NCBI GenBank assembly: GCA_910583545.1
Contig: CAJTXM010000001.1
Span: forward strand, 72,865-136,864
Origin: an uncultured Christensenella sp.
GTDB taxonomy: Bacteria > Bacillota > Clostridia > Christensenellales > Borkfalkiaceae
DNA: 64,000 nucleotides
Direction: 5' to 3'
Part shown: in pieces, positions 2,422-16,953 of the stretch
Position numbering within the stretch: the stretch's first letter is position 1
How the letters are laid out: each line of letters begins with the position of its first letter
Program-made: the position numbers and the translations under genes
The notes under the pieces: generated by a model
Databases searched by the model: none
What the model saw: the letters and a program-made list of their open reading frames with translations, nothing else
Told to the model about the DNA's origin: nothing

Positions 2422-2461
2422 TTTGTCCTACCCACGGGAAATGGGTAGGACAAATTTTTTT
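2422..2461 (+). terminator. Rho-independent terminator ending the phage late operon
   Basis: 13-bp stem TTTGTCCTACCCA / TGGGTAGGACAAA with a 7-nt loop, followed by a T7 run. Confidence 0.85.
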
Positions 2462-2512
2462 AAGCTACATTCAAGTCCGAAAAATAATAGGTGTAGTTGT
2501 AAGGAGGTAAAA

Positions 2513-4018
2513 ATGGCAAAGCAAAGAGCAGTAGCATACTGTCGAGTATCAAGCAAAAGCAAGGCGCAAATGCACAGCTTAGGATATCAGACAGACTATT
2601 GGCAAAGAGCAATGGCGGAAAGCAACGAATACGAGTTTGTCGGAATCTATGCAGACTCAGGCATAAGCGGACGTTCGACGCATAAACGACCGCAGATCCT
2701 AAGATTGCTGGCAGACGCTAAGGAAAAGCGATTCGATGTCGTATTCACAAAATCTGTAGCAAGATTTGCAAGGAATACGGAAGAACTGCTGTCAATGGTG
2801 CGAGAACTTAGAGATGAGGGAATAAAGGTAATCTTTGAAAAAGAAAAGATTGATACATTTAACCCGAACAGCGAAGTATTCCTAACAATCGCCGCATCAG
2901 TAGCCGAAAACGACCTGAAAATCTATTCGCAAAACCAAACGTGGGCTATGCGTGAAAAGTACAAAAACGGCTATATCAGCATAGGGGCAAAGATACTCGG
3001 CTATCGGATGAGGAAAGAGGATAACACCCTCATCGTAGAGCCAAGCGAGGCTGAAGTAGTAAAAAGAATTTTTTATATGTATATCCACGGGAAAGGGATA
3101 CTCGCCATAGCCAAGCAACTAACGGCTGAAAAGGTGGGGCTTGATTATAGCAACCACGGAAAATGGAGCCGTGGTGCAATTCATTACATCCTGAACAACG
3201 AAAAGTATATAGGCTGTGCATTAATGCAAAAGTTTTATAATGTGGACGGAATATGCCGAAAGAATAGAGGCGAAGTCAAGCAGTATTTTATGGAAAATAC
3301 GCACGAACCCATTATATCAGTAGAAGATTTTCAAAAAGTGCAAGAATTGATGAGGGGAAGGGCATGTGAATGCGAAATAGGTGTAGCACGAAAAAATTAT
3401 GAATTTACGGGGAAGATTAAATGCGGATGCTGTGGTGGGAATTATATACGAAAAGTTCAGAACTGCGGAAAGCCATACGAAGTTGTGGTTTGGGTATGCA
3501 GTAAAAAAGACACCTTTGGGGCTGAGAACTGCATCGGTACTCGCATAAAAGACTGTGTCCTGAAAGATAAATTCGTAGAGTGCTATAACGAATTCATAGC
3601 ATTGAAAGGTGAGGGCGATACGATATCAGTGTTGAATCGGCAGCTATCGTGGCTGCTGGAACAAGAAAGAGAGTTAAATGCTCTTAAAGTTAATAGAATG
3701 ATAGAAATTGCCGACTATAATGCGGAATGGAAGACCGTGAAAGAGCAAATCGATGAAATTAATAAGCAGATAGAAAAACAGACTGTCCGCAAACTTAATA
3801 AATCGGATTTAGTCCCGATAACCGAATACGATAAGGAGAAGGTCGAAATATTCTTGGATTATGTGGTGATGACTCCGAAGAAAATCACATTCGTATTTAT
3901 TAACGGAGTTGAAATCAGCCGAGAATATACTAACGGCGCATCAGGGAACACAAAAGGTTGGTACGACCGAAGGATGGCAAGATTGGCAAGGGAAAAGGAG
4001 GTAGCCGATGGCAATTAA
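2513..4018 (+). CDS. Large serine recombinase
   Basis: Start moved to ATG 2513, with AAGGAGG upstream. Resolvase catalytic domain AVAYCRVSSKS...DSGISG...VFTKSVARFARNT, then a recombinase domain, a Cys-rich zinc ribbon (CGCCGGNY...VWVCSKK) and a coiled coil. Confidence 0.9.
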   Translation: MAKQRAVAYCRVSSKSKAQMHSLGYQTDYWQRAMAESNEYEFVGIYADSGISGRSTHKRPQILRLLADAKEKRFDVVFTKSVARFARNTEELLSMVRELRDEGIKVIFEKEKIDTFNPNSEVFLTIAASVAENDLKIYSQNQTWAMREKYKNGYISIGAKILGYRMRKEDNTLIVEPSEAEVVKRIFYMYIHGKGILAIAKQLTAEKVGLDYSNHGKWSRGAIHYILNNEKYIGCALMQKFYNVDGICRKNRGEVKQYFMENTHEPIISVEDFQKVQELMRGRACECEIGVARKNYEFTGKIKCGCCGGNYIRKVQNCGKPYEVVVWVCSKKDTFGAENCIGTRIKDCVLKDKFVECYNEFIALKGEGDTISVLNRQLSWLLEQERELNALKVNRMIEIADYNAEWKTVKEQIDEINKQIEKQTVRKLNKSDLVPITEYDKEKVEIFLDYVVMTPKKITFVFINGVEISREYTNGASGNTKGWYDRRMARLAREKEVADGN

Positions 4019-5594
4019 TAATAGGGTGGTGCAAGAGCGTCCCGTCTTATTCCGTCCAAATATGACGGCGGTTACAGCAAAAGAGAAGGTAACCTATTAT
4101 GCTCGAGTAAGCACAGAAAACGACGAGCAAGAGGACTCCTATGAGCGCCAGAAAGAACACTTTGAAGAAAAGATTATGGCGAATCCTAAATGGGAGTATG
4201 TGCCGGGGTATGCGGACTGGGGTGTAACAGGTACAAAGGCGGAGGCAAGAAAGAACTTCATGCGCATGATAGACGATTGCCGAGCTGGAAAGATAAACCG
4301 CATACTTGTCAAATCTATATCAAGATTCGCGCGAAATACGGTGGATACCTTAATGTACATCCGAGAGCTGAGGGAGAGGGGAATTAGTGTGTTCTTCGAA
4401 ACACAAAATATCGATACAATGTCTGCAAGCGGTGATGTGCTAATAACAATCTTGGCTGCGATGGCTGAACAAGAAAGTCGCACCATGTCAACCAATATTA
4501 AATGGGCATATCAAAAGAGGTTTAAAGACGGTCAGGTATTAATCAACCCTTGCACCCTTGGGTATAAAAAGGAAGGCGACGAATATGCTATCGTCGAGGA
4601 AGAAGCCGAAATTATACGAATGGTATTCCGCAACTACCTCGCAGGCGATTCCGTTAGACAGATTGCGGATTCTCTGAATGCGGAAGGATATGTGACAAGG
4701 AAAGGACATCAGTTCAAGCCTAACTCAATCCTCAATATCCTCGCAAACGAAAAATACACAGGTAATGCGATACTCGGAAAGACTTTCAAACCTGATGTAC
4801 TGTCTAAGCATCGAGTAAAGAACGAAGGGCAAGCACCGAGCTATTATGTAGAGAATAGTCATCCAGCAATCATCAGTCAGGAACTGTTCGATATGGTACA
4901 AGCAGAAAAAGAAAGACGCAAAAACCTCCGCTCAACCGTAAAAACGGGCAAGGGAAAGTACAGCAGAAAATATGTGCTGAGCGGATTGCTGGTCTGTGCA
5001 AACTGCGGGGCGAAGTTCAGACGAAACGGACGCACGGTTGCATCTGGGGAATTTATTCCTACATGGGTATGCATTACTCATCAAAAAGACCAGCAGTCAT
5101 GTAAAATGCGACCGCTGAAAGAGAAAGATATATATGCCGCATACGAGAGGGCAGTCAAGCGATTGCTGGGCGAAACCGATGGATTAATGGACATAATTAA
5201 GCAAACGACTCTCGAAGGAATGAACATAGAGCAACCCGAAGACATAGAGGAAATCCGCAAAGCTCTAATGCAAGCGAGAAAGGCGGTGCTGGACTTGTTC
5301 AAGGCAAAGAGAGATGGCGATGTGTCATTGGAAGAATACGAGCGGAAATATTCAGAATTCAGTCAGCAGATTGTTGACCTTGAAGAAAGAGAGAAAAATG
5401 TGCATGCTCAAAATCTTCAATGCCAGCTGGCGCAAAAGCGGTTGCAAGATGCATACGAACTTATAGACGAGGCAAGATCGAATTGCACCGATAAAGACGT
5501 AATGCGAAAATTACTCGATGCAATAAAGGTAATTAGTAAGCATGAGTTAGAGTTCCAGTTCAACTGCGGTATTGACATTAAGGAAACCGTTTAG
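4008..5594 (+). CDS. Large serine recombinase (second of an overlapping pair)
   Basis: VTYYARVSTENDEQEDSYERQ...DWGVTG...LVKSISRFARNT, with Cys cluster CANCGAKF...WVCITH. It overlaps the upstream gene by 11 nt. Confidence 0.9.
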   Translation: MAINNRVVQERPVLFRPNMTAVTAKEKVTYYARVSTENDEQEDSYERQKEHFEEKIMANPKWEYVPGYADWGVTGTKAEARKNFMRMIDDCRAGKINRILVKSISRFARNTVDTLMYIRELRERGISVFFETQNIDTMSASGDVLITILAAMAEQESRTMSTNIKWAYQKRFKDGQVLINPCTLGYKKEGDEYAIVEEEAEIIRMVFRNYLAGDSVRQIADSLNAEGYVTRKGHQFKPNSILNILANEKYTGNAILGKTFKPDVLSKHRVKNEGQAPSYYVENSHPAIISQELFDMVQAEKERRKNLRSTVKTGKGKYSRKYVLSGLLVCANCGAKFRRNGRTVASGEFIPTWVCITHQKDQQSCKMRPLKEKDIYAAYERAVKRLLGETDGLMDIIKQTTLEGMNIEQPEDIEEIRKALMQARKAVLDLFKAKRDGDVSLEEYERKYSEFSQQIVDLEEREKNVHAQNLQCQLAQKRLQDAYELIDEARSNCTDKDVMRKLLDAIKVISKHELEFQFNCGIDIKETV

Positions 5595-5703: not shown

Positions 5704-6708
5704 ATGTCGGCAGCGGAAATTGTTCAAATAGTTATCGGCGCATTATCATTGATAGCAACGGTTGCGGTATCGTTTTTCATCTATTGGTTGCAAAGTAGAC
5801 ATGAAAAGGAAATGGCTAAGATAGAAGAAAAGCATCGCCAAGAAAAGTTGGCTGAGGAAGCTAACAATTTCTTGATAGACCATGAAGATGAGAGAGATTA
5901 TCTACCTTGGTGTACAATTGCAACCAATCAGCATCAGCATGAACGGCATAACCGAAAGATATACACGGATTTCTGCCGTTGCTCTGTTGAGCTACAAAAC
6001 AAGATTTTGGAAATGGCAGAGTTTACGGTTAGGACTATCAAAGACACCGATTGGGTAGATACTGCATTTGAAAAGCTGGAAAAAGATATTGATTGTTATA
6101 AATTGGGTGAACAGCCGTTTCTTTATGAGGGGGCGAAATACTTCCATCGAGCATTTACTCTATATCGAGAAAATGAATTTGAAGAGAATTATAAAAGAGA
6201 ACTAAAAGCTATTTATAAAACAATTCAGTTATTTATAGTAAAGGAAGAAGAAAGGAACAGGGTTAGCCTTAGAACTTATATTGAACAGTATTTTGATTAT
6301 GTGTTGGGCGAGATACGAAAGGAAAATATTGAGTGGGAAGAACCTTTACCGCCTGTTGATTATGCCTGGGAACATTATCATCTGGGTTATGCGCCAGAAG
6401 AAGACGTGTGTTATTGGGTAATGGAACTTGTTCTAAACTTTGTTGTCAATATTCATAATAGATTTGGTACAACCGTTTTTGATAGCATAATACATGACAA
6501 TGCAACTGATGCGCAAGCTGAAACTTATGAAGATAGGTACTATGATATTCTTTATTGGATGTATTATACATATTGCTATAAGGCTGGAGAAAAAGAGGGA
6601 ATAGAATTAGAATCGAAGAAAAAGAAAGTGAAGAAACCAAAGGCGACAAGGAAACAAAAAGTTAAAAAGGATAAGAAAAAATCGAAAAAAGGGGTTGACA
6701 AATCCTAA
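5704..6708 (+). CDS. Membrane-anchored protein with a polybasic C-terminal tail, unknown function
   Basis: GGAGG RBS. One N-terminal TM helix (IVQIVIGALSLIATVAVSFFIYWL), a soluble domain of about 270 aa with no motif I recognise, and the tail KKKKVKKPKATRKQKVKKDKKKSKKG. Confidence 0.7.
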   Translation: MSAAEIVQIVIGALSLIATVAVSFFIYWLQSRHEKEMAKIEEKHRQEKLAEEANNFLIDHEDERDYLPWCTIATNQHQHERHNRKIYTDFCRCSVELQNKILEMAEFTVRTIKDTDWVDTAFEKLEKDIDCYKLGEQPFLYEGAKYFHRAFTLYRENEFEENYKRELKAIYKTIQLFIVKEEERNRVSLRTYIEQYFDYVLGEIRKENIEWEEPLPPVDYAWEHYHLGYAPEEDVCYWVMELVLNFVVNIHNRFGTTVFDSIIHDNATDAQAETYEDRYYDILYWMYYTYCYKAGEKEGIELESKKKKVKKPKATRKQKVKKDKKKSKKGVDKS

Positions 6709-6776
6709 AAATATGATATACTACAACGATTTGGCGCAGAAGCGTGAAATGGCGGCATGGGCGAAAGGAGAGTAGT

Positions 6777-7472
6777 ATGTTTGAATACGTTACAAAAGCA
6801 GAGTACAAACCAGTTAAACAGGAGCTTGAGAAAATAATCAATCAAGTTCAAGCCGTAATGCGTAAGAAATACGAAACAACCTTTCAGTTCAGCCTGATAG
6901 GGAGCGGCAAAAGGCATCTTGTAACTCGCATTGTCGGCGGAAACGGCGGTTATGATTTTGATTATAATTTGATAATCTCTGCGCCGAAGTCAGGATACCA
7001 CTATAAAGCGGATGTTGTAAAACAGCAGTTTATGGATGCTTTCAGGACTGTATTGAAAAATACGAAATATAAAGATCCGCAAGATTCAACGTCGGCTATA
7101 ACGATAAAAGTTGTTGATAAACAGAAAAGCCGTATAGAACATAGCTGTGATTTTGCGATAATTTATTACGATAGCAATCGTAGCGAAAACGGGTATTATT
7201 ACTTAAGGCATGACAAACGGCAAGAAAGCTATGACTTTGTATTCAGGAATTTGAGCCGTGATGTTGATGCAAAGGTTGATGAAATACTTGAATTTAACAA
7301 CGGCTGGAATGCGATCCGTGACGAGTATTTAAAATTAAAAAATGCCAATCGGGATAACAACAAGCATTCGTTCTCGCTCTATCTTGAAGCAGTAAATAAC
7401 GTTTATAATCGCTTACCCGATGAAGATGATTATTATGATGAAGACGATGATGACGATTACTATGATGATTAA
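6777..7472 (+). CDS. Minimal Pol-beta-superfamily nucleotidyltransferase with a polyacidic Asp/Tyr tail
   Basis: Start moved to ATG 6777, with AAAGGAGAG upstream. Signature LIGSGK...GGYDFDYNLII (G-S ... D-x-D) plus a third acidic strand HSCDFAIIYY. The C-terminus is DEDDYYDEDDDDDYYDD. Confidence 0.65.
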   Translation: MFEYVTKAEYKPVKQELEKIINQVQAVMRKKYETTFQFSLIGSGKRHLVTRIVGGNGGYDFDYNLIISAPKSGYHYKADVVKQQFMDAFRTVLKNTKYKDPQDSTSAITIKVVDKQKSRIEHSCDFAIIYYDSNRSENGYYYLRHDKRQESYDFVFRNLSRDVDAKVDEILEFNNGWNAIRDEYLKLKNANRDNNKHSFSLYLEAVNNVYNRLPDEDDYYDEDDDDDYYDD

Positions 7473-7492
7473 TTCCTGGGGAAGGTCTTAAA

Positions 7493-8875
7493 ATGAAAGT
7501 ATTATCAACAAGGCTTGAGCTCATAAACGAGTTCAACGAAAAAGAAATGAACTCGGTCATCATCCGATGGCTGAAAGGCAACGAGCCATGCAAGGCGATC
7601 GGAACGGAATATGAGAACACCGTCGATAAAAGTGCGGTTCACCTAACCGACGAATATTGCCTAATCGATACGTTCAAAACAAGGAATGAAAGTGGTGACT
7701 ACTTTCTATTCAAATTTGAACAAACCTATTACGAGCAAATTTGGATAACCGAGATAATTCTGAAATCCACGGATGCGGAAAAGGTTTTATACATACACGT
7801 AAAATGTAATGGCGATACAACAAGATTTGAAAAAGTGCCGATTATCCGTACAGACATAATTCGGGCGTTTATAGACAGTAAGTACATAAAGCCAACTGCT
7901 ATCCCAATAACGGCGCAGCCAGTATATACGACGGAAGAGATGAAAGACCTGATCGTCGATGCGGTAAACGGTAACTACCAACTAACGATGCCAATGGTGT
8001 TCGCAACTAAGATATTCGATAGTGCTGGGTATGAAATAGACATTGATAACCTTGCTCGACGGCTGGCTGGTATGGCGTACATCGTAGCTGAGAACGAAGA
8101 TGGGTATGCTCGAAGCCTGAAAGATAAAACCAACGGGAATAACCCATACAACGGGCATGTAGCGATATACTACCCAGGCAGAGGAAAATCAAAAAATCTA
8201 ACGCCACGAAGTGCGCTCGGCTGGGGTACGCTGGATAAAATGATACTAAATGAAGTCGCTCAATATATGACAGCACAGGTAGATGCGGAAGCACCAACAT
8301 GGAAAGGGTTACACGTTGAGCGAATGACGGATGAAGTAAAAGTTAAAAGTGAGTTATTAGATGAATTTGATGCGGAGAATGGTTCGCTTGAAGAGCAGTT
8401 AAGCCAAGCGAAACGGCGAATAGCGACATTGACTGCAAGGATTGAAGTGTTAGAACAAGGGCAGACGGCTGAAGGCGGTTTGCTCACCATGACTGATAAA
8501 AATGAGTTTTATGATTATGAACAATACGACTTAATAATGACGATACTGACTAATGCCTTACAAAATTATGCCGAAGATACGAGAGCATACGAGCTATTAA
8601 AGGCAACCATAGACGATAATCCCGTCAAGGGATATGGCAAAGAAATCTTCGAGAGGATAAAGCAGATATTCTCCCGAGGTGAAGGGATAAAGGACAAGGA
8701 GTTTGCCGAGCTGCGTGAGCTTGGGTTTGAAGTGGTAAGCGAAAAGAACCATTACAAAATCGTGTTCAAAGGCGATGAAAAGTATTGGTTTCCCATCTCG
8801 AAAACGCCGAGCGACGGGCGTAGCGGTAAGAATCTTGCGTCTAATATCATAAAAAGGCTGTCAATATATAAGTAA
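7493..8875 (+). CDS. 460-aa protein with a central coiled coil, unknown function
   Basis: Starts 20 nt after the NTase stop. Coiled-coil segment EEQLSQAKRRIATLTARIEVLEQ. The C-terminal 55 aa show a HicA/YcfA-like pattern (see findings). A terminator follows. Confidence 0.7.
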   Translation: MKVLSTRLELINEFNEKEMNSVIIRWLKGNEPCKAIGTEYENTVDKSAVHLTDEYCLIDTFKTRNESGDYFLFKFEQTYYEQIWITEIILKSTDAEKVLYIHVKCNGDTTRFEKVPIIRTDIIRAFIDSKYIKPTAIPITAQPVYTTEEMKDLIVDAVNGNYQLTMPMVFATKIFDSAGYEIDIDNLARRLAGMAYIVAENEDGYARSLKDKTNGNNPYNGHVAIYYPGRGKSKNLTPRSALGWGTLDKMILNEVAQYMTAQVDAEAPTWKGLHVERMTDEVKVKSELLDEFDAENGSLEEQLSQAKRRIATLTARIEVLEQGQTAEGGLLTMTDKNEFYDYEQYDLIMTILTNALQNYAEDTRAYELLKATIDDNPVKGYGKEIFERIKQIFSRGEGIKDKEFAELRELGFEVVSEKNHYKIVFKGDEKYWFPISKTPSDGRSGKNLASNIIKRLSIYK

Positions 8876-8882
8876 ATAAAAG

Positions 8883-8917
8883 GGTCATCACTCAATAACG
8901 GGTGATGACCTTTTTTT
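8883..8917 (+). terminator. Rho-independent terminator closing the three-gene cassette
   Basis: 9-bp stem GGTCATCAC / GTGATGACC followed by a T7 run. Confidence 0.85.
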
Positions 8918-8924
8918 CGTTTTT

Positions 8925-9071
8925 AAGGTTGCAAATATTGATTTTTTAGGATGCGAAAATTAAAAAATTACTGCAATCTTAAAATGGCGTAAAATGGCTG
9001 TTTTTACCACAAAAAGTGCAAAATAGCGGCTATTTTACTTGCTTTCAGAGCCAAGGTTGCAAGAATACGGG
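8925..9071 (+). repeat. Motif cluster: AAGGTTGCAA (8925-8934 and 9053-9062), GTGCAAAAT (9016-9024), GCAAGAATACGGG (9059-9071)
   Basis: The same words recur at 16960-17014 and 19100-19155. GCAAGAATACGGG recurs at 9546-9558. All copies lie in non-coding DNA. Confidence 0.6.
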
Positions 9072-9085
9072 GGCAATACTTTCCG

Positions 9086-9412
9086 CTATTTCATTTGCTT
9101 AACCAAGGCTTCCAAAATGCTCTGGCTATCCGCTGAAAGGTTCTTCATCTGCGAAACGACATTTTCCATAGCTGCCGTGCGCTCTGCGTCCGTATTGAAG
9201 AACTCCCACAGCTTAATGCCGAGAGCGTCGCAGAGACAACACAGAGTTTGGAAACTCGGCATTGTCTTCCGCCTACGTGCTTGGTAGATGGAAGAAATGC
9301 TCGTTTCGGACATAAAGCTCAGCTGATTAAACGTGATGCCTTTCATCTCAAGCAAAAAGTCCAACCGCTGAAAGAACCGTGCAGACGTCCAAAATTCTAC
9401 GTTGCTTTCCAT
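9086..9412 (-). CDS. XRE-family helix-turn-helix transcriptional regulator
   Basis: Start moved to ATG at 9412, with GGAGGTG upstream. HTH_3 pattern GITFNQLSFMSETSISSIYQARRRKTMPSFQTLCCLCDALGIKLWEFF. It is divergent from the ATPase-recombinase operon. Confidence 0.8.
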   Translation of the reverse strand: MESNVEFWTSARFFQRLDFLLEMKGITFNQLSFMSETSISSIYQARRRKTMPSFQTLCCLCDALGIKLWEFFNTDAERTAAMENVVSQMKNLSADSQSILEALVKQMK

Positions 9413-9635
9413 ATGTAATACACCTCCTTTATAAAACTGCCACAATGGGAGAGTGGCTATAAAGAATATGTAGACAAAAACGAGTATTTCGCCAACCGTT
9501 TTTGGGGTGTTTTTTATAAAAAATTATACAAATGTCAGAAAATCGGCAAGAATACGGGCGTTTTTTTGACAAATGTATTCACGGGCAAAATGCGTTTAAT
9601 GTTAAAATAGATAGAGGCTGAAAATTGGAGGTCGT

Positions 9636-10628
9636 ATGGACGGCGTAAAGCAACCTTATTCAGTTAAATATTACAGAGAAGTAAAGGCTAAAAAGGTAGA
9701 ATGGTTGTGGTATCCGTATATCCCTTACGGCAAAATTACAATTATTCAAGGTGATCCAGGAGAAGGGAAATCCACGGTTGCTATTAACTTAGCATCCATC
9801 ATATCGAACGGCGAGGCTTTACCGCTTGAAAAAGAAAAAACCGATCCGAGAGCGGTCGTCTATCAGAATAGCGAAGACGGAAAGGAAGATACAATAGTAC
9901 CTCGCTTAATTGCTTGCGGTGCGGACTTGAATAAAGTTGCCTATATAGAAGAAGATGAAACGGCGTTAGAGCTTGGTGATGAACGGCTGTCAAAAGCAAT
10001 TGATGAAACAGGGGCAAGGGTGCTGATACTTGACCCAGTTCAAGCCTATTGGGGTGCAAACACCGATATGAATAGGGCTGGGGCAATTCGCCCGATTATG
10101 AATCAACTCGCACGAATGGCACAGCAAAAGAAGTGCGCTGTCATTATGATAGGACACATGACAAAAGGGAACGGAAAAGGATTATACCGTGGACTTGGCT
10201 CTATTGATATAGCCGCCGCAGCTCGAAGTGTGTTGCTGGTTGCAAGGCTGAAAAGTCAGCCCGAAATGCGAGTACTCGCTCATGTTAAAAGCAATCTTGC
10301 ACCGATAGGCGATTCGATTTTATTTTCTGTCGATGGGAAATCGTCTATTTCGTGGCTACGAAAAAGCAAGCTGACCGCTGAACAAATTTTGGATGAGTCC
10401 TATGAGGAATCAAACAGCAAGTTAGACCGCGCAGTAGCAATTATTAAAGAATGTATAAAAAACGGTGAATGCTCTGCCAATGAAGTTCTGCGCCAATGTG
10501 AAGACCAGGGTATTGCAAAGCGGACGGTTAATGAAGCTAAAGCAAGACTGAATATAGAATCAGTTAAGCGAAAGGGCGGCTGGTTTTGGATAGCTGGGGA
10601 AGACGAGGACTCGGACGATGACGACTAA
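9636..10628 (+). CDS. AAA_25 / RepA-RecA-like ATPase of mobile elements
   Basis: Walker A GDPGEGKST and Walker B RVLILDPV, then IMIGHMTKG..GLGSID, and an acidic C-terminus. Confidence 0.75.
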   Translation: MDGVKQPYSVKYYREVKAKKVEWLWYPYIPYGKITIIQGDPGEGKSTVAINLASIISNGEALPLEKEKTDPRAVVYQNSEDGKEDTIVPRLIACGADLNKVAYIEEDETALELGDERLSKAIDETGARVLILDPVQAYWGANTDMNRAGAIRPIMNQLARMAQQKKCAVIMIGHMTKGNGKGLYRGLGSIDIAAAARSVLLVARLKSQPEMRVLAHVKSNLAPIGDSILFSVDGKSSISWLRKSKLTAEQILDESYEESNSKLDRAVAIIKECIKNGECSANEVLRQCEDQGIAKRTVNEAKARLNIESVKRKGGWFWIAGEDEDSDDDD

Positions 10629-10639
10629 CGGAGGTATAA

Positions 10640-12475
10640 ATGGCAGTAAGCGATAATCGGGAACAGATACGGCAAGCATACAAAATCCATGAAGCCGATG
10701 CTCCGACAAAGATGATACCAGCGATGAAGAAAATGGACATCAATGATGATGCTCGGTCAATGAGGGTATGTGCCTATTGCCGTGTATCAACGGGAAACGA
10801 CGAGCAGTTGTCATCTTTTGTCCTTCAGCAGGAGCATTATACTCATCTTGCCAATACACACAAAAATTGGGATTTAAAACGTGTATATGCCGATGAGGGA
10901 ATTTCGGGTACGTCTTTAAAACACAGAGATAGTTTCAATGAAATGATAGAGGCTTGCCGCCGTGGTGAATATGACCTCATAGTTACAAAGAGTGTATCCC
11001 GTTTTGCAAGAAATATCGTTGACTGCCTTTCTCTTGTACGAGAACTAAAACGTTTAAATCCGCCAGTGGGTGTTTTGTTTGAAACCGACTCAATTTATAC
11101 GCTTTCGGAAGAATCCGAGTTGAAACTTGGACTTTTTGCAAACATAGCGCAAGCCGAGTCTGAAAAAAAGAGCGAGAGTATGAATTGGTCGCTGAATGAA
11201 CGGTTCAAACATAATAAACTGCTTACCCCAGAACTTTATGGATATAGACGACCGAAAGATATGCTCGGCAACTATATAAAGTACGGTATATTAGAAATTG
11301 AAGAATCGGAAGCGGTTGTCGTGCGATTTATTTTCGACGCATTTTTGGCTGGGTTTACTCTTGACCGTATTGCTGAAATGCTTACGGAAATGCAGATAAA
11401 AACCAAACTCGGCAATACGAATTGGAATGCGGGGTCGCTTGCATATATCGTGCGCAATGAACGGTATTGCGGAAGTGTTCTTACGTGGAAGACCTTCACG
11501 GCGGACATTTTTGAACATAAGAAGAAAAAGAACAGAAATAACCGTGACCAATGCTATTACGAAAATCATCACCCGGCGATTATACCTGTTGAAATCTTCG
11601 AAGCGGCACAAACGCTGATATACAATAGACGCCACGGAATGCGGGGCGGTCTGCACGTGATGCAAGTCATAGACGACGGGGTATTTCAGGGATATGTGCC
11701 TATCAATCATCATTGGGCGAATGACGATCCAAATGCATACTATAACGCATCGGACAGCGTTGAGGGGCGAAGAACAGAGCGTAGGGTGCGTAGGTCAGCA
11801 TTTAGTGCATTTGATTTAACGGGATATCAAGTGGTCCGGGGGCAGTTTTTAACCGCACGTTCAGAGCTTCCGTGTATGACGATATCAAATGAAAAGATAC
11901 TGTTCAATACGGCTTGCGGAAAAAAATTGCAAGACTATTCCTATATCCAATTACTACTGCATCCAACCGAAAGAAAAATGGCGATACGACCGTGTGATAG
12001 GGACGACGCTTTCAGTATTTCTTGGCGAAGGCAGAAGACGGGACAGCCGATATTAATAAAGATACTCTCGTGTCCATTCTTTATCAAGGCGCTTATGCAA
12101 ATAATGGACTGGAATCCTGAATTTAATTATAGGATTTTGGGGACGTGGATAGAGAAGGGCGCAGACTGCATAATGGTCTTTAATCTTACAAAAGCAATGC
12201 CGATTGCCGAGATTGTGAATGAAGAAGAACAAGAGTCAATTCGGAAGCGGCGGATGGCAGTATGTCCCGAGGAATGGGAAGAATCGTTTGGCGATGAGTT
12301 CTATGAATTCAGTATGGACAACGAATTATATTATTTGAAGTCCGTTCCGAATCTTCGAAGCGGAATTAAATGCAGAGATGTAGACGGACAGCAGCAAATT
12401 TCGCTACTGTCGCATGCGGAAGTGTTAGAAAGTGCAGCAAAAATTAAAATGGGAGTAACGGGTACAGATGAGTAA
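10640..12475 (+). CDS. Large serine recombinase with an atypical C-terminal domain
   Basis: VCAYCRVSTGNDEQLSSFVLQQEHY...DEGISG...VTKSVSRFARN. From about residue 391 (FDLTGYQVV...) it carries a copy of the domain encoded by the next three ORFs. Confidence 0.9.
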   Translation: MAVSDNREQIRQAYKIHEADAPTKMIPAMKKMDINDDARSMRVCAYCRVSTGNDEQLSSFVLQQEHYTHLANTHKNWDLKRVYADEGISGTSLKHRDSFNEMIEACRRGEYDLIVTKSVSRFARNIVDCLSLVRELKRLNPPVGVLFETDSIYTLSEESELKLGLFANIAQAESEKKSESMNWSLNERFKHNKLLTPELYGYRRPKDMLGNYIKYGILEIEESEAVVVRFIFDAFLAGFTLDRIAEMLTEMQIKTKLGNTNWNAGSLAYIVRNERYCGSVLTWKTFTADIFEHKKKKNRNNRDQCYYENHHPAIIPVEIFEAAQTLIYNRRHGMRGGLHVMQVIDDGVFQGYVPINHHWANDDPNAYYNASDSVEGRRTERRVRRSAFSAFDLTGYQVVRGQFLTARSELPCMTISNEKILFNTACGKKLQDYSYIQLLLHPTERKMAIRPCDRDDAFSISWRRQKTGQPILIKILSCPFFIKALMQIMDWNPEFNYRILGTWIEKGADCIMVFNLTKAMPIAEIVNEEEQESIRKRRMAVCPEEWEESFGDEFYEFSMDNELYYLKSVPNLRSGIKCRDVDGQQQISLLSHAEVLESAAKIKMGVTGTDE

Positions 12476-13067
12476 TAACGACGAGTATATCCAGGAATTG
12501 ATTGAAGGTGAGGAAACCGAAACGGTCAACCTTGCAGGGTTTCAGGTAGCAAAAGCTGAACTCTTTGCACATACGCGAGAGCCTGCCATAACGGTCTGGG
12601 ATAATAAAATCAAATTCAATATGGCATGTCTTAGGCGATTTCCAGGCATTACACACATTCAACTGTTGATACACCCCGAGGAAAAACGGTTGATAGTTCG
12701 TCCGTGCGATGCAGATGCCCCGGATTCATTAAGGTGGGCAAGCGGCGGCGGAGAAAAGGAAATTAAGACCAGGGATATGATATGCCAGATATTTGCCGCC
12801 AAGCTGTTTGAACTCATGGGCTGGGATAAGCAATATAGATATAAGATGCTCGGCAAACCTGCGGTTTATCACGATGAAGGGTTATACTTATTCAAATTAA
12901 ATGATTTTGAATTATTCGTAGGTACGGGGACGAAACGAAAGCGGTCATATTTGCCTGCGGATTGGCGGGAATGCTTCGGTGTACCAATAGAGCAGCACGA
13001 AGAGCAATATAAAATCGATTTAGCAGAAGGCTACGTTTCGACAAATAAAGTAGGAGAAATAAAATAA
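12468..13067 (+). CDS. Unknown protein, paralogue 1 of the recombinase C-terminal domain
   Basis: VNLAGFQVAKAELF...HIQLLIHPEEKRLIVRPCD...GWDKQYRYKMLG aligns with the recombinase tail. The start overlaps the recombinase stop (ATGAGTAA). Confidence 0.75.
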   Translation: MSNNDEYIQELIEGEETETVNLAGFQVAKAELFAHTREPAITVWDNKIKFNMACLRRFPGITHIQLLIHPEEKRLIVRPCDADAPDSLRWASGGGEKEIKTRDMICQIFAAKLFELMGWDKQYRYKMLGKPAVYHDEGLYLFKLNDFELFVGTGTKRKRSYLPADWRECFGVPIEQHEEQYKIDLAEGYVSTNKVGEIK

Positions 13068-13498
13068 TGGATAGCTTAATGACAGAGATAGACTTGGAAG
13101 GATTCCAAGTAGTAAACAGCCAATATTTCAGTACGATATCAGCACCGCAAATGACAATATGGTGCGATTCGGTTTCATTTAGCCAAGCTGCATATGCGGC
13201 ACTCAATAATTGCGAAGCAATATCGATAATGCTTAATAAGGATAAGAAGTGTATTCTTATTTCGCCTGTTCAGACCTCCAATCCTAATGCGATAGTTTGG
13301 CGAAAGGGTAAGAGCGTAACTAAGTATTGCAAAATTAGCTGTACCACATTCGCTCGAAAGCTCTTTGATGACTGGGGGCTAAATGATGATTATCGTTATA
13401 GAACCATCGGTCGATTGGTACAGTCCGATAGAAAAGTAATGGTATTATTTGATTTTACTCAATCAGAAAAATGGAAAGGCGATAAAGCGGTAAAATGA
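13067..13498 (+). CDS. Unknown protein, paralogue 2
   Basis: IDLEGFQVVNSQYF...AISIMLNKDKKCILISPVQ...GLNDDYRYRTIG. TAATG start/stop overlap. Confidence 0.75.
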   Translation: MDSLMTEIDLEGFQVVNSQYFSTISAPQMTIWCDSVSFSQAAYAALNNCEAISIMLNKDKKCILISPVQTSNPNAIVWRKGKSVTKYCKISCTTFARKLFDDWGLNDDYRYRTIGRLVQSDRKVMVLFDFTQSEKWKGDKAVK

Positions 13499-13499
13499 G

Positions 13500-13862
13500 A
13501 TGGCAGAATCAACCTATATTTCTTTTTACAGTAAGACAGGCTGTATTCGAATCTTTAAAGCATCTGTAAGAGCAATAGGACTTCCAAGATTTATTCGATT
13601 CCGCATAAACGAAGATGCGACATCGCTTTTATTAGAACCATTCGATAGAATATCTTTGACATCATTCCGTGTGCCAGCGAATCTAAATGAGGAGGAGGGC
13701 AATATGGAAGTGTACAGCAAAGGATTTATTCACGGGCTTTCACAGCGTTTGGGCTGGGAAAGAGGTCGGTCATATCGTGTCCCCGGAAAGGTTCTGCCAC
13801 AGCAAAACATTGTGTTGTACGATTTGACTCAAGCGCAAGAAATACCTAACGACGGAGTTTAA
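13500..13862 (+). CDS. Unknown protein, divergent paralogue 3
   Basis: FIRFRINEDATSLLLEPFD...LGWERGRSYRVPG keeps the central and C-terminal motifs. It starts 2 nt after the upstream stop. Confidence 0.65.
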   Translation: MAESTYISFYSKTGCIRIFKASVRAIGLPRFIRFRINEDATSLLLEPFDRISLTSFRVPANLNEEEGNMEVYSKGFIHGLSQRLGWERGRSYRVPGKVLPQQNIVLYDLTQAQEIPNDGV

Positions 13863-13873
13863 TGTTAAAAATA

Positions 13874-13900
13874 GAGCTGTTGCAAAAAACGCAACAGCTC
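13874..13900 (+). terminator. Hairpin after the recombinase operon (weak terminator)
   Basis: 10-bp stem GAGCTGTTGC / GCAACAGCTC with a 7-nt loop. There is no clean T-run. Confidence 0.4.
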
Positions 13901-13932
13901 AACTTGGTTTAGGAGAACATAAGGAGATATTT

Positions 13933-15201
13933 ATGGAAAAGAAAATCACGGCTCCACAGATGTTTGCTTTGGAGCATAATTATTTAAGCATAGGGCAAAA
14001 GTGCATATTAAATGATGAGTCGGCTGGGTTGTTGAATACCTTACTTGATAAGCTGGCTAAACTTCAATGGAATAATGAAACCGAAAGGTGGCGGTTTTGG
14101 GTGTCAGTGCCAAGGGGAACTATCGAAGACTTTGATTATGCAGACCTGCATGAAAGAGAGGAATATGAAACAGACGACGAATATGAGAAGGCTTGGAAAG
14201 AATGGTTTCCAAATGATGAGTATTGGTACGAAATAACGGTTGCCGCTGCAAACGGTTATGCCGTTATTGTCGTTAATAATTCTATAGTGCTAAATGTAGA
14301 TCCTAATACCGAATCGTGGAATAAAAAAGATTATACGGATTTTTTGCAATTCCTAATTGATGAGGTTGATAACATTATCAAATTGCTGAAAGACGGCTCG
14401 TATGCGGAGAAAATCAAGTCAAGCATCCCTATTGAATATCGAATGGGAATCATTAAGCGCAATGCTTTATGGTCAATCAGCCCGGAATGCATGAAACATG
14501 ACTTGAGCGATTTAACCGAACAAGAAATAGATTGCTTCATCAATAATGTAGAACAGGACAAATCGGTAATTGATAAGACTTGGCGCATACAGGATTTGAC
14601 GGCTAAGATATATTACGATGCTTGTGCCGTATGCTATCGTGCTGCAAGGCTTAAGGGATTAGAAGGTAAAACTGCTAAAGAACAATATGGCAGATATGCC
14701 GATGATAGAGATGGTGGGTTGACAACAATAGAGGATACCTCTGTCGATGCCTTTGAAAAGTGGTTTAATCTGAGCGATTCGGAAAAATGGAAAATACAGA
14801 ACCCGAGCCATATGTGGGAGATTTGCCAAGGCAGCAGTTATACGCGGATACATTTATATGTCAATAAAGATGATGCTGGCTACTACTTAGGCTTAGCTGG
14901 CGGAGTGCATTGCAGGACAGAAGAAATTGTGCGTATGTATAATGCGTTAAGGAAAGCTGGTTTCCCTGTACGCATGTTTAGCCATCAACTGATTGCAAAA
15001 GCAATAAGCGGTGTGGATTATATAGGAATTGTTCCCTGCACCGACACGCCGTCGCAGTATTGGTACGGTGGGTTTCCGCTGAAGGAGGTTATATCATTTA
15101 TTAACCTTACAGATGAAGTATTTTCAGAGGAAATGATACAGCGGATAACAGAACAAGCTGAGTGGCTTGAAATGTCGTTGCTAACGCAAATTGACGGGTA
15201 A
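13933..15201 (+). CDS. Acidic 422-aa protein, unknown function
   Basis: AAGGAGA RBS and a long uninterrupted ORF. I recognise no motif. Confidence 0.7.
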   Translation: MEKKITAPQMFALEHNYLSIGQKCILNDESAGLLNTLLDKLAKLQWNNETERWRFWVSVPRGTIEDFDYADLHEREEYETDDEYEKAWKEWFPNDEYWYEITVAAANGYAVIVVNNSIVLNVDPNTESWNKKDYTDFLQFLIDEVDNIIKLLKDGSYAEKIKSSIPIEYRMGIIKRNALWSISPECMKHDLSDLTEQEIDCFINNVEQDKSVIDKTWRIQDLTAKIYYDACAVCYRAARLKGLEGKTAKEQYGRYADDRDGGLTTIEDTSVDAFEKWFNLSDSEKWKIQNPSHMWEICQGSSYTRIHLYVNKDDAGYYLGLAGGVHCRTEEIVRMYNALRKAGFPVRMFSHQLIAKAISGVDYIGIVPCTDTPSQYWYGGFPLKEVISFINLTDEVFSEEMIQRITEQAEWLEMSLLTQIDG

Positions 15202-15205
15202 GAGT

Positions 15206-15481
15206 ATGTCTAGGGAAATACTTTCTAAAAGAAATGACTTAGCTAAAATTATAATCGCCGATTGTAAGCCCAAAATTGCGGACGTGTGCCACTTGTTGGA
15301 AAGAAGCGAGAGCGTGGACGAGAAAGAGATTGAAAGGCTTTTAGACGGCTTGTTGGACTATGGTTACGACAATGAAGTAATCGAACTTTTCAACCAGCTA
15401 TGTCATACGGCAGAGGCAAGATATCCGCAACTCGTAAAGGACTACACTCGTTATTTTGCGAATCAATGGGCGGAAGACTAG
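15206..15481 (+). CDS. 91-aa protein, unknown function
   Basis: ATG 15206 lies 5 nt after the upstream stop. MSREILSKRNDLAKIIIADCK... Confidence 0.55.
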   Translation: MSREILSKRNDLAKIIIADCKPKIADVCHLLERSESVDEKEIERLLDGLLDYGYDNEVIELFNQLCHTAEARYPQLVKDYTRYFANQWAED

Positions 15482-15549
15482 GTGCAACTATTGCCTTTTT
15501 ATGGAAAATCTGTTATAATAAGTATATCTCGAAAGAAGAGGATGCGGCT

Positions 15550-16953
15550 ATGGCAGAGGAAATAAAACCGTTAATTGTTGCGCTTGATACAAATGTCTTT
15601 GACAATGCAAATTATTTTTATAGTGGGTTGGATTTAGGCATACTCAAACAATATATCGATGATGGGGTTATAGGTGAACTGATAATTAGTGATGTCGTAG
15701 TCAGAGAGTGCAAAAGACACCTATCTGAAAGTGCTGAAAACTTGGTGGAGGATTTTGCCGCCAAGTTTGATTCGCTTGAATGGAAAAGAGCATCCACCAT
15801 TGGTGCATTACCATCTGTCCCCGAAATAATTGATAAAGAAGCGATAACTGCTGGGCTAATGAAGATGTATGATGAATACCTCGTTGCTACACACGCAAAA
15901 ATTGTAGACAGCAAAAGTGTCAACATCGAAAACGTTATTTCAGATTATTTTAACGAAGTGCCTCCTTTTAAGGGAGGTAAGAAAAATGGCAAAAAGAAAG
16001 ACCATAAGAAATATGAGTTCCCCGATGCAATAATTATCGCTCGTCTAAAACAGATTGCTGAGGAAAGCGGAGAGTTGCGTGTAGTTAGTGATGACCCTGA
16101 TTGGAAAGCGGCATTTTGGGGCAATGATAAGGTAAAATTCTATAAAGAAATAAAGGAATTATTCTCCGACATTACCTTGGAAGAAAAGCTAGGGGCTAAG
16201 GCTATAAAGTATTTTAACGATCATCAAGCACAGTTTAACAACCGTATTGAGCAAATGTTGAGGATGAAACCAGTAGAAGTGTTTGCGCAAGTTCGTGATA
16301 GGCATGGTGATGACCGTAGGGAAGCGTATGACAATTTTGACATCCTAAATATTGGTGTTTCTTCTAAAATAGCGAATGTGGATTATGTTGGGAAATTGAC
16401 AGTTATTATTACTGCAACCGCATTTGCTTTGGTTGAATTAGAAGGGATGTTTTATAATGAGGTTGTTCCTGATGACATACCAAGGTGGGGCGATGAGAGT
16501 GCCGAGCCGTATTATTATGAGATGACTGGCTTATGTAAAGAGTTCCATGAAATTAAGTTTCCAGTTCAGGTAACTTTTATAATAAAAGAAGAAAACATAG
16601 ACCGCATGGTAAAAGCTGATCCACTGTTGCCGAGAAAAATTGTCCTGGATGAAGCTACAGTCGCTGATAGAAGATTCATTGATACTGAAGGGTTTTATAC
16701 CTATAAAAAAGAATATCAATGTGAGTGCGGACACAAATTCATTGTTGATTTAATGGAACAGGTCGACACTACATCTCCTGATGGTGAACGCAATATGGGA
16801 AGTGAGCTGGATCACTTTGTTTTTTGTGAGGATAAATGTCCTAATTGCGGAAGGAAATATCGTATATGCGGTGATGTGTATGAATACCCCATTGGGACGT
16901 TATCTCTTGACCAAACCAAAATCGAATGGAAAAACAGTAAGGAGAATAAATAG
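15550..16953 (+). CDS. PIN_12 (DUF4935)-like predicted nuclease with a C-terminal zinc ribbon
   Basis: Start moved to ATG 15550. LIVALDTNVFDN, then EFPDAIIIA and LRVVSDDPDW give the acidic-residue layout of PIN-like domains. The C-terminus has CECGHKF...CPNCGRKYRIC. Confidence 0.7.
   Translation: MAEEIKPLIVALDTNVFDNANYFYSGLDLGILKQYIDDGVIGELIISDVVVRECKRHLSESAENLVEDFAAKFDSLEWKRASTIGALPSVPEIIDKEAITAGLMKMYDEYLVATHAKIVDSKSVNIENVISDYFNEVPPFKGGKKNGKKKDHKKYEFPDAIIIARLKQIAEESGELRVVSDDPDWKAAFWGNDKVKFYKEIKELFSDITLEEKLGAKAIKYFNDHQAQFNNRIEQMLRMKPVEVFAQVRDRHGDDRREAYDNFDILNIGVSSKIANVDYVGKLTVIITATAFALVELEGMFYNEVVPDDIPRWGDESAEPYYYEMTGLCKEFHEIKFPVQVTFIIKEENIDRMVKADPLLPRKIVLDEATVADRRFIDTEGFYTYKKEYQCECGHKFIVDLMEQVDTTSPDGERNMGSELDHFVFCEDKCPNCGRKYRICGDVYEYPIGTLSLDQTKIEWKNSKENK

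Follow-up and report, generated by a model that had tools for sequence, protein, structure and literature searches.

The three-gene cassette at positions 5704–8875 of a 64,000-nucleotide stretch of DNA from an uncultured Christensenella sp. (assembly GCA_910583545.1, contig CAJTXM010000001.1, positions 72,865 to 136,864 of the forward strand; hereafter the window) is probably an accessory (moron) region of a temperate Christensenellaceae phage, in which three separately acquired genes stand side by side and do not make up one machine. The genes share the forward strand and encode a 334-aa membrane-anchored protein (gene 1, 5704–6708), a 231-aa compact nucleotidyltransferase (NTase) with a predicted cGAS/CD-NTase-like fold (gene 2, 6777–7472) and a 460-aa HEC-07-like protein (gene 3, 7493–8875). 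An earlier note on this DNA had placed three same-strand open reading frames (ORFs) between a recombinase pair and a terminator, which are here identified as serine integrases and a 16-bp stem, and had proposed that they form one undescribed defence system. The observation is confirmed and its interpretation is partly supported: the region is cargo, gene 2 is a Pol-beta NTase and the relatives and surroundings of genes 1 and 3 suggest defence, but the trio is not a unit. The new elements of the cassette are an unannotated, widespread mini cGAS-like NTase that stands alone behind a covarying leader, a variant of HEC-07 of HicA type, and a membrane protein with a swappable domain, from a family embedded in restriction-modification (R-M) operons. 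The source names of all members of the three families are "hypothetical protein".

The three genes do not form a conserved unit

Partners beside gene 2 were detected with TBLASTN and hidden Markov models of all three families in a species scan comprising one genome per species and the best 80 of the 102 loci at which gene 2 has a homologue. Genes 1 and 3 stand beside gene 2 in three of these 80 species genomes, all of them Christensenella/Christensenellaceae copies of the same element, and in 2 of 18 viral contigs, both of which carry the same Christensenella-type element. Gene 3 is absent beside gene 2 in 77 of the 80 species genomes and gene 2 is absent from 57 of 63 gene 3 loci, while a gene 1 homologue lies within 5 kb at two gene 3 loci. 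In a related Pumilibacter element the integrase pair is followed by gene 2 alone. A mouse-gut Christensenellaceae metagenome-assembled genome contig (L013; related loci are designated by L numbers) is 99.9% identical to the window and carries a 100% identical copy of gene 2 but is without approximately 8.8 kb of the window (8107–16952, against L013 3990–4164), its gene 3 ending at about residue 205. Lost with this segment are the second, C-terminal half of gene 3, the terminator, an XRE-type gene, an AAA_25 gene, a third serine recombinase and later ORFs; the cause is a deletion in that strain or a difference in assembly. Thus the co-occurrence in only 3 of 80 species, the lone gene 2 of Pumilibacter and the truncated gene 3 of L013 indicate that the trio is not a conserved unit, contrary to what had been proposed, and the truncation further indicates that gene 2 does not need gene 3.

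Gene 2 encodes a compact cGAS-like nucleotidyltransferase

Residues Gly-42, Ser-43, Asp-60, Asp-62 and Asp-125 of gene 2 are invariant in 44 close homologues, and the catalytic residues are 92–98% conserved among 108 full-length representatives of 26–47% identity to gene 2. Only 11 positions reach at least 85% conservation in these representatives, including the five residues above together with Thr-50, Tyr-184, Lys-188 and Ser-198, and the catalytic residues are the most conserved positions of this divergent set. The Pol-beta signature previously read from the sequence (S43, D60, D62 and a third acidic residue) is thereby borne out, with Asp-125 as the third acid, and the conservation of the catalytic set indicates selection for continued activity of the enzyme. 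An AlphaFold model built from the alignment of 44 homologues (pLDDT 80, pTM 0.69) was compared with the PDB using Foldseek, where all matches with E ≤1e-3 are CD-NTase, DncV or cGAS structures (TM-score 0.44–0.58), the best being CdnB (7ljo; E 2e-6, TM-score 0.56). As judged from the model, gene 2 is a truncated cGAS/CD-NTase-like fold with an intact catalytic set. The CD-NTases of the cyclic-oligonucleotide-based antiphage signalling system (CBASS), CdnB, CdnC, CdnE and DncV, and cGAS resemble the gene 2 model in their long N-terminal helix, NTase β-sheet core and C-terminal helical part, and gene 2 has the GS...DxD...D catalytic set as well. In contrast, gene 2 proteins of ~215–230 aa are ~30% shorter than the matched CD-NTase/cGAS chains (~270–390 aa), and the conserved adjacent effector of CBASS has no conserved counterpart at 77 gene 2 loci, gene 2 having instead its own leader RNA.

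Gene 2 has no Pfam, NCBIfam, PADLOC or PHROG match, four further family members are likewise without a match in Pfam, PADLOC or NCBIfam, and sequence and profile searches of the PDB with gene 2 found no NTase. Against viral structures (BFVD) the model has a single match, an uncharacterised giant-virus protein. The family comprises more than 424 clusters at 90% identity and 877 clusters at 50% identity (exhaustive search, E ≤1e-3), nearly all of 205–250 aa, and neither it nor the family of gene 1 is represented in PADLOC v2. Gene 2 is thus placed in a family by none of the profile libraries. Gene 3, however, falls in HEC-07, a candidate family that already has a name, and this is an outcome of the type that the earlier note had listed as refuting its proposal. 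That gene 2 is an antibiotic-modifying (ANT/Lnu-type) or housekeeping NTase with irrelevant neighbours is extremely unlikely: its Pol-beta core, similar size, solitary occurrence and mobility would suit such an enzyme, but no NCBIfam or Pfam family claims it, the top 50 structural matches contain no ANT or Lnu, the family is found in 0 of 72,556 plasmids and there is no conserved housekeeping synteny.

The C-terminal tail of gene 2 (window 7400–7472), DEDDYYDEDDDDDYYDD, is acidic and rich in Tyr, and that of gene 1 (6610–6708) is Lys-rich. The two tails were considered as matched partners and this idea was dropped because acidic tails are rare in the gene 2 family (2 of 108 at the threshold used) and acidic Tyr-containing ones recur in some solitary copies. 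Longer relatives of gene 2, scanned for fusion partners, are tandem NTase duplications or carry unannotated extensions and give no functional hint. In the tandem-duplicated proteins P0301, P0356, P0360 and P0375 (376–444 aa) the N-terminal copy keeps the GS and DxD motifs and has lost the third Asp, an arrangement that hints at a dimeric gene 2 enzyme with one catalytic subunit.

Gene 2 is solitary and carries its own promoter and RNA leader

No neighbour family is found at more than six of 77 gene 2 loci. Recombinases of the tyrosine and serine types are met most often beside gene 2, HTH proteins, EF-Tu, MatE and PrgI are also common, and no CBASS-type effector domain is present among the 25 most frequent neighbour families. 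The contexts are diverse: one copy lies antisense in a siphophage tail module between the tape-measure and tail-chaperone genes, and another in the type IV secretion transfer module of an integrative and conjugative element (ICE), beside PrgI and a 788-aa ATPase read as VirB4-like. Further copies are located beside variable restriction islands, at the end of an AAA_25/serine-recombinase element, at integrase-proximal ends, or adjoining EF-Tu, MATE or glycerate-kinase genes. Orientation is mixed: of 61 loci, both neighbours lie on the opposite strand in 12, at least one in 36, and both on the same strand in 25. Absent from plasmids as stated above, the family is found in 1 of 50,697 deposited phage genome records and is mainly a constituent of chromosomal prophages and ICEs of uncultured gut Firmicutes.

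A near-consensus sigma-A promoter (6695–6722, forward strand; 11 of 12 matches plus an extended TG) overlaps the stop codon of gene 1 and consists of TTGACA, a 16-nt spacer and TG-n-TATACT. In a comparison of the 140 nt 5′ of gene 2 homologues at 105 loci, an equivalent promoter was found at 89. It is followed by a conserved 5′ leader of ~55 nt (6723–6776, forward strand), in which AYGAU precedes a hairpin, a single-stranded AUGG-N-GG-N-WUGGG segment and the ribosome-binding site, an architecture seen just 5′ of gene 2 homologues in L001–L092, L111–L121 and L187. The arms of the hairpin vary and yet stay complementary (TTTGGC/GCCAAA, TTTAAC/GTTAAA, ACAAT/ATTGT). In the stem, 86.9% of alignment cells are paired and 73 have changed on both sides, whereas controls with slid partner columns give 31–41% pairing and 7–14 double changes; none of 500 shuffles scores as well as the real alignment. 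The covariance model gives 81 matches at E ≤0.1 in 1.18 Mb from 94 loci, all 81 directly upstream of a gene 2 homologue, and one significant match in the window (6723–6779, E 4e-11). Rfam 15 has no match at the leader (window, E ≤10; four divergent loci, E ≤1), and a second helix, or pairing of the leader with the start of the coding sequence, was looked for and not found. Between most pairs of gene 2 copies in unrelated contexts, DNA homology extends from 70–160 nt 5′ of the ATG to about the stop codon. Thus, at the level of sequence, gene 2 is a self-contained moron of ~0.8 kb made up of promoter, structured leader and coding sequence, similar to those phage morons in which a promoter and a single gene are set into unrelated operons. 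The leader, a candidate new cis-acting RNA motif, could serve as a regulatory RNA, as a binding site for the enzyme or as a 5′ stabiliser.

Gene 3 is a HEC-07-like protein with a HicA-like C-terminus

The AlphaFold model of gene 3 (pLDDT 85) comprises a β-sheet domain (residues 1–130), a thioredoxin-like domain (~140–240), a coiled coil (246–324), a helical linker and a C-terminal α-β-β-β-α unit (401–456) that is HicA-like and contains the invariant His-420. The long helices at 246–324 correspond to the central coiled coil recognised from the sequence before. The fold of the second domain matches thioredoxin, calsequestrin and ERdj5, while Foldseek with the whole chain gives weak per-domain matches only and sequence and profile searches of the PDB give coiled-coil noise only. 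In the profile libraries, gene 3 has weak matches only, to HEC-07, HicA-like and PHROG families. The PADLOC HEC-07 profile (PDLC04161) matches gene 3 with E 1.3e-6 and 25 of 30 family members (best E 3.2e-14), the match spanning the last part of the β-sheet domain and the thioredoxin-like domain that follows. A PADLOC HicA-like match is found in 18 of the 30 members (best E 2.8e-7), and Pfam HicA_toxin gives a weak match in 2 of 18. The C-terminal profile finds E. coli HicA (6hpb) in the PDB weakly (E 0.23), and in this alignment His-420 falls on the His of "GSNH" in HicA.

HEC-07 (Hma-embedded candidate 07; Payne et al.) is described by its authors as a combination of AdoMetDC-like, thioredoxin-like and RelE RNase modules, and is reported to be one of the seven among nine candidates that reduced plaquing in E. 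coli, acting as a single gene (bioRxiv 10.1101/2024.01.29.577857). Gene 3 and HEC-07 have the N-terminal modules in common and each is one polypeptide with a C-terminal domain of RNase-toxin type, which is RelE-family in HEC-07 and HicA-like in gene 3. Gene 3 differs further in an inserted coiled coil of ~80 residues and helical linker, and its first domain resembles helix-grip/START-like folds in Foldseek whereas the authors of HEC-07 describe theirs as AdoMetDC-like. The HEC-07 N-terminal modules together with a HicA-like C-terminus thus identify gene 3 as a new architecture variant of HEC-07 with a different RNase toxin domain. It does not conform to HicAB, in which a small stand-alone HicA adjoins HicB: the HicA-like domain occupies the last 60 residues of 460, and no HicB-like neighbour was found among the window ORFs and profile scans. 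The earlier note had recognised neither the resemblance of gene 3 to HEC-07 in its N-terminal half and to HicA at its C-terminus, nor the promoter at 6695–6722 and the gene 2 leader.

The gene 3 family is small (36 clusters in a word-indexed search). Some homologues stand alone, for example beside a Cas9 locus, and at ~17 of 63 loci they are translationally coupled to an upstream 354–376-aa protein with RNase III and double-stranded RNA-binding domains. This coupling to an RNase III-like gene, which affects about a third of gene 3 relatives, is a further difference from HEC-07, and takes the form of a 4-nt overlap (L096–L101, L140, L144, L150, L158, L160–L166 and L171). The RNase III gene and the gene 3 homologue may constitute a two-gene module not covered by PADLOC v2.

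Gene 1 is a membrane protein with a swappable domain

Gene 1 contains one hydrophobic segment (residues 9–27; mean Kyte-Doolittle 2.38 over 19 residues) and matches no entry of Pfam, NCBIfam, PADLOC or the PDB, with no usable match among the PHROGs either, which agrees with the single N-terminal transmembrane helix and lack of a nameable domain observed previously. Basic residues follow the helix and, by the positive-inside rule, the bulk of the protein is presumably cytoplasmic. The family comprises at least 268 clusters without annotation and is characterised by an unusually conserved transmembrane helix sequence, conserved Cys and His residues and the motifs LYDGAKYFHR and ETYEDxYY, the Lys-rich tail being limited to a subclade. 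In three lineages, relatives of gene 1 occupy the hsdS–hsdR gap of a type I R-M operon, the position of R-M-embedded defence genes that is used for "guilt by embedding". At L189–L192 (for example L189 4228–5882), within such a gap, a ThsB-like TIR gene (PADLOC PDC-S66/ThsB) lies 12 nt 5′ of the gene 1 homologue. In an island that also encodes a methylase and Vsr, a 79%-identical homologue is found directly 5′ of the Tiamat gene TmtA. One family member is fused to a C-terminal Mrr nuclease domain (Mrr_cat).

The comparison of the window with the viral contig L111 reveals an exchange confined to gene 1. The gene 1 proteins are 59% identical, against 97–100% for the two recombinases (rec1 and rec2), gene 2 and gene 3; in megablast the two sequences are 96.7% identical up to position 5789 and 94.5% identical from 6665, with no match between. 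The hypervariable part (5789–6665, forward strand) corresponds to the predicted cytoplasmic domain, and such a cassette replacement fits a gene under diversifying selection.

Associations between the genes

Several observations weigh against three independent genes. Genes 2 and 3 are 20 bp apart and have one promoter and one terminator in common, no terminator-like site being present between them in the window, and in the related loci L130–L133 the called start of gene 3 overlaps the stop of gene 2 by 4 nt. In a distant gene 2 clade, all nine loci have a downstream Abi_2/AbiD-like gene of 242–254 aa that overlaps gene 2 (L087 8001–9354; L088 5676–7068; L091 7968–9366; L122–L127 about 7970–9357). 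In L187 (5001–6790) and L188, a gene 1 homologue (76% identity) stands directly 5′ of a gene 2 homologue of 34% identity. This pair is chromosomal and without integrases, and its gene 2 homologue keeps the leader and its own terminator. As a second, independent adjacency of genes 1 and 2, among the few inspected contexts of gene 1 homologues with the long tail, it is unlikely to be pure chance. Moreover, the leader could be a simple 5′ stabiliser and not a regulatory element, and the case for defence derives for gene 3 from homology to one preprint-validated candidate, for gene 1 from guilt by association and for gene 2 from context.

The distant clade is 40–44% identical to gene 2, has no leader and includes several copies on viral contigs. 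Its nine loci contain seven distinct Abi_2/AbiD-like partner sequences and look like an undescribed two-gene NTase-RNase operon. Abi_2 is a family that we count among the HEPN RNases, and minimal NTases (MNT) neutralise HEPN toxins by AMPylation. In MNT-HEPN and AbiE pairs a small Pol-beta NTase lies directly 5′ of an RNase-type gene, as it does in the distant clade and, by position, in genes 2 and 3. In contrast, MNT proteins are minimal (~100–130 aa), while gene 2 has a cGAS-like fold and is solitary in its main clade; the analogy is for the distant clade a lead and not a result. The 9/9 coupling nevertheless indicates that NTase-RNase pairing exists in the gene 2 family.

Because the distant clade is coupled to an AbiD-like gene, a functional pair of genes 2 and 3 has to be considered, in which the NTase restrains the HicA-type RNase by nucleotidylation, in the logic of MNT-HEPN or AbiE, or activates it or signals to it, with gene 1 unrelated. 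The common transcription unit, the 4-nt overlap in L130–L133 and the coupling of gene 3 homologues elsewhere to an RNase III enzyme are consistent with such a module, but the two genes are apart in 77 of 80 gene 2 species and 57 of 63 gene 3 loci, Pumilibacter carries gene 2 alone at the same position, and HEC-07 acts as a single gene according to its authors (bioRxiv 10.1101/2024.01.29.577857). The loss of the gene 3 C-terminus is tolerated in the near-identical strain, which speaks against the pair and is also compatible with gene 3 as its toxin. On balance this explanation is doubtful.

The AbiD-like partners bear also on a counter-defence or immunity function, in which gene 2 would be no defence gene but an orphan antitoxin-like NTase that neutralises AbiD/HEPN-like RNase toxins of the host, or that destroys or mimics immune nucleotides. 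Pairing of the relatives with AbiD-like genes is the pattern expected if the solitary copies are orphaned antitoxin-type partners, these copies reside on prophages and ICEs and are often integrase-proximal, and PMC11825919 offers a precedent for orphan antitoxin-like enzymes of phages. Against this, gene 2 has its own sigma-A promoter and one copy lies antisense in late genes, which suggests expression in the lysogen and not in lytic growth, and a single phage record among 50,697 contains it. Such a function is thus considered improbable.

Hailong, compared here by description, combines the NTase HalB with the membrane channel HalA, and so places an NTase beside a membrane protein as in the window. 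HalB is a Tyr-primed poly-dA synthase that guards a channel (review PMC13434031); the 97% conserved Tyr-184 and Tyr-rich acidic tail of gene 2 are a mere resemblance to this priming. The gene order of the window is reversed relative to Hailong, gene 2 has a separate promoter and gene 1 has one transmembrane helix and a large, predicted cytoplasmic domain. A Hailong-type pairing is absent in 77 of 80 gene 2 species, and no HalB entry is present among the top 50 Foldseek matches of the gene 2 model. The CBASS or Hailong logic suggested previously, in which all three genes form one system where a signal or polymer made by the NTase controls gene 1 and gene 3 is an accessory, is accordingly very hard to sustain. 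The close spacing on one strand, the renewed adjacency in L187/L188, where the gene 2 allele is very different, and the position of a gene 1 homologue after a ThsB-like TIR, another type of signal-making enzyme, in a type I R-M operon would all suit it, but the trio is confined to one phage lineage, gene 2 has no recurrent neighbour, and gene 1 is found mostly without any NTase, in type I R-M operons, with no effector match in PADLOC or Pfam. In addition, gene 1 alleles are 59–100% identical beside a near-constant gene 2, which argues that the two do not co-evolve.

Locus layout and phage context

The upstream border of the cargo region is formed by an overlapping pair of large serine integrases (2423–4018 and 4008–5594, forward strand; PHROG phrog_95, E 1e-104 and 6e-131), both 90–100% conserved in the related elements L010, L014, L015, L111 and L112. 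Tail-fibre proteins and a holin (PHROG matches) lie 5′ of the integrases. Correctly spaced Shine-Dalgarno sequences precede each gene, TGGAGG before the ATG at 5704, AAAGGAGAG before that at 6777 and GGGGAAGG before that at 7493, and an intrinsic terminator (8878–8915, forward strand) with a 16-pair stem, six G-C pairs and a T run closes the transcription unit of genes 2 and 3. It is followed by a divergent XRE-type gene, an AAA_25 primase/helicase-like gene and a third serine recombinase. The order of late genes, integrases, cargo, regulator and replication genes is thus the layout of a temperate phage, and the same element is present on two IMG/VR viral contigs. The cargo position proposed in the earlier note agrees with this location between phage integrases and regulator. 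Its reading of the stretch as the most AT-rich is also correct: the 3-kb stretch of lowest GC in the entire window begins at 6001, and the GC content is 36.1% in gene 1, 37.2% in gene 2 and 42.6% in gene 3, against 45.4% in the window.

Downstream, the C-terminal part of the third serine recombinase (10640–12475) and the ORFs at 12468–13067, 13067–13498 and 13500–13862 apparently have a repeated domain in common, as judged by eye from motifs in 10640–13862 (GFQV...F...A...I.LL.HP...RPC...W). The same ORF series stands 3′ of the recombinase in L010 and L012.

Proposed functions and significance

Under the preferred reading, a phage accessory region of three separately acquired genes, the cassette would occupy an island between the serine integrases and the divergent XRE-type regulator, with the replication genes beyond. 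We infer a defence role for each gene, and the enzymatic steps are proposed in the same sense. Gene 3 would be a single-polypeptide effector of abortive-infection type, whose N-terminal modules may sense or regulate, such that an infection cue would free the HicA-like RNase domain to cut RNA. Gene 1 would be tethered to the membrane and expose a cytoplasmic recognition domain that is exchanged between near-identical phages, as in an arms race. Gene 2 would be expressed while its element is resident in a lysogen or an ICE host, and would act without a dedicated partner, either nucleotidylating a target or making a nucleotide product; in the phage of the window it would be co-transcribed with gene 3.

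A broader interpretation is put forward tentatively, as a possibility of limited confidence. The gene 2 family may represent an undescribed, widespread group of minimal cGAS-like NTases that function as a single-gene, RNA-coupled immune or counter-immune module, with the leader as a regulatory sensor or as the RNA ligand or substrate of the enzyme. Individual lineages may have plugged this module into RNase effectors, AbiD-like in the distant clade and a HicA-type relative of HEC-07 in the window.

In place of one exotic system, the cassette thus offers three candidates that can be tested one by one and whose families all lack annotation. Gene 2 is the most valuable of these; if active alone, it would widen the uses of the cGAS-like fold beyond operons of cyclase plus effector, and its leader would supply a new RNA motif acting in cis. 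Gene 3 suggests that RNase toxin domains (RelE or HicA) are exchanged behind the sensing module of HEC-07, to which a partner of RNase III-like or NTase type may be added. Gene 1 provides a candidate family for the set of genes found within type I R-M operons, and bears a clear mark of domain swapping.

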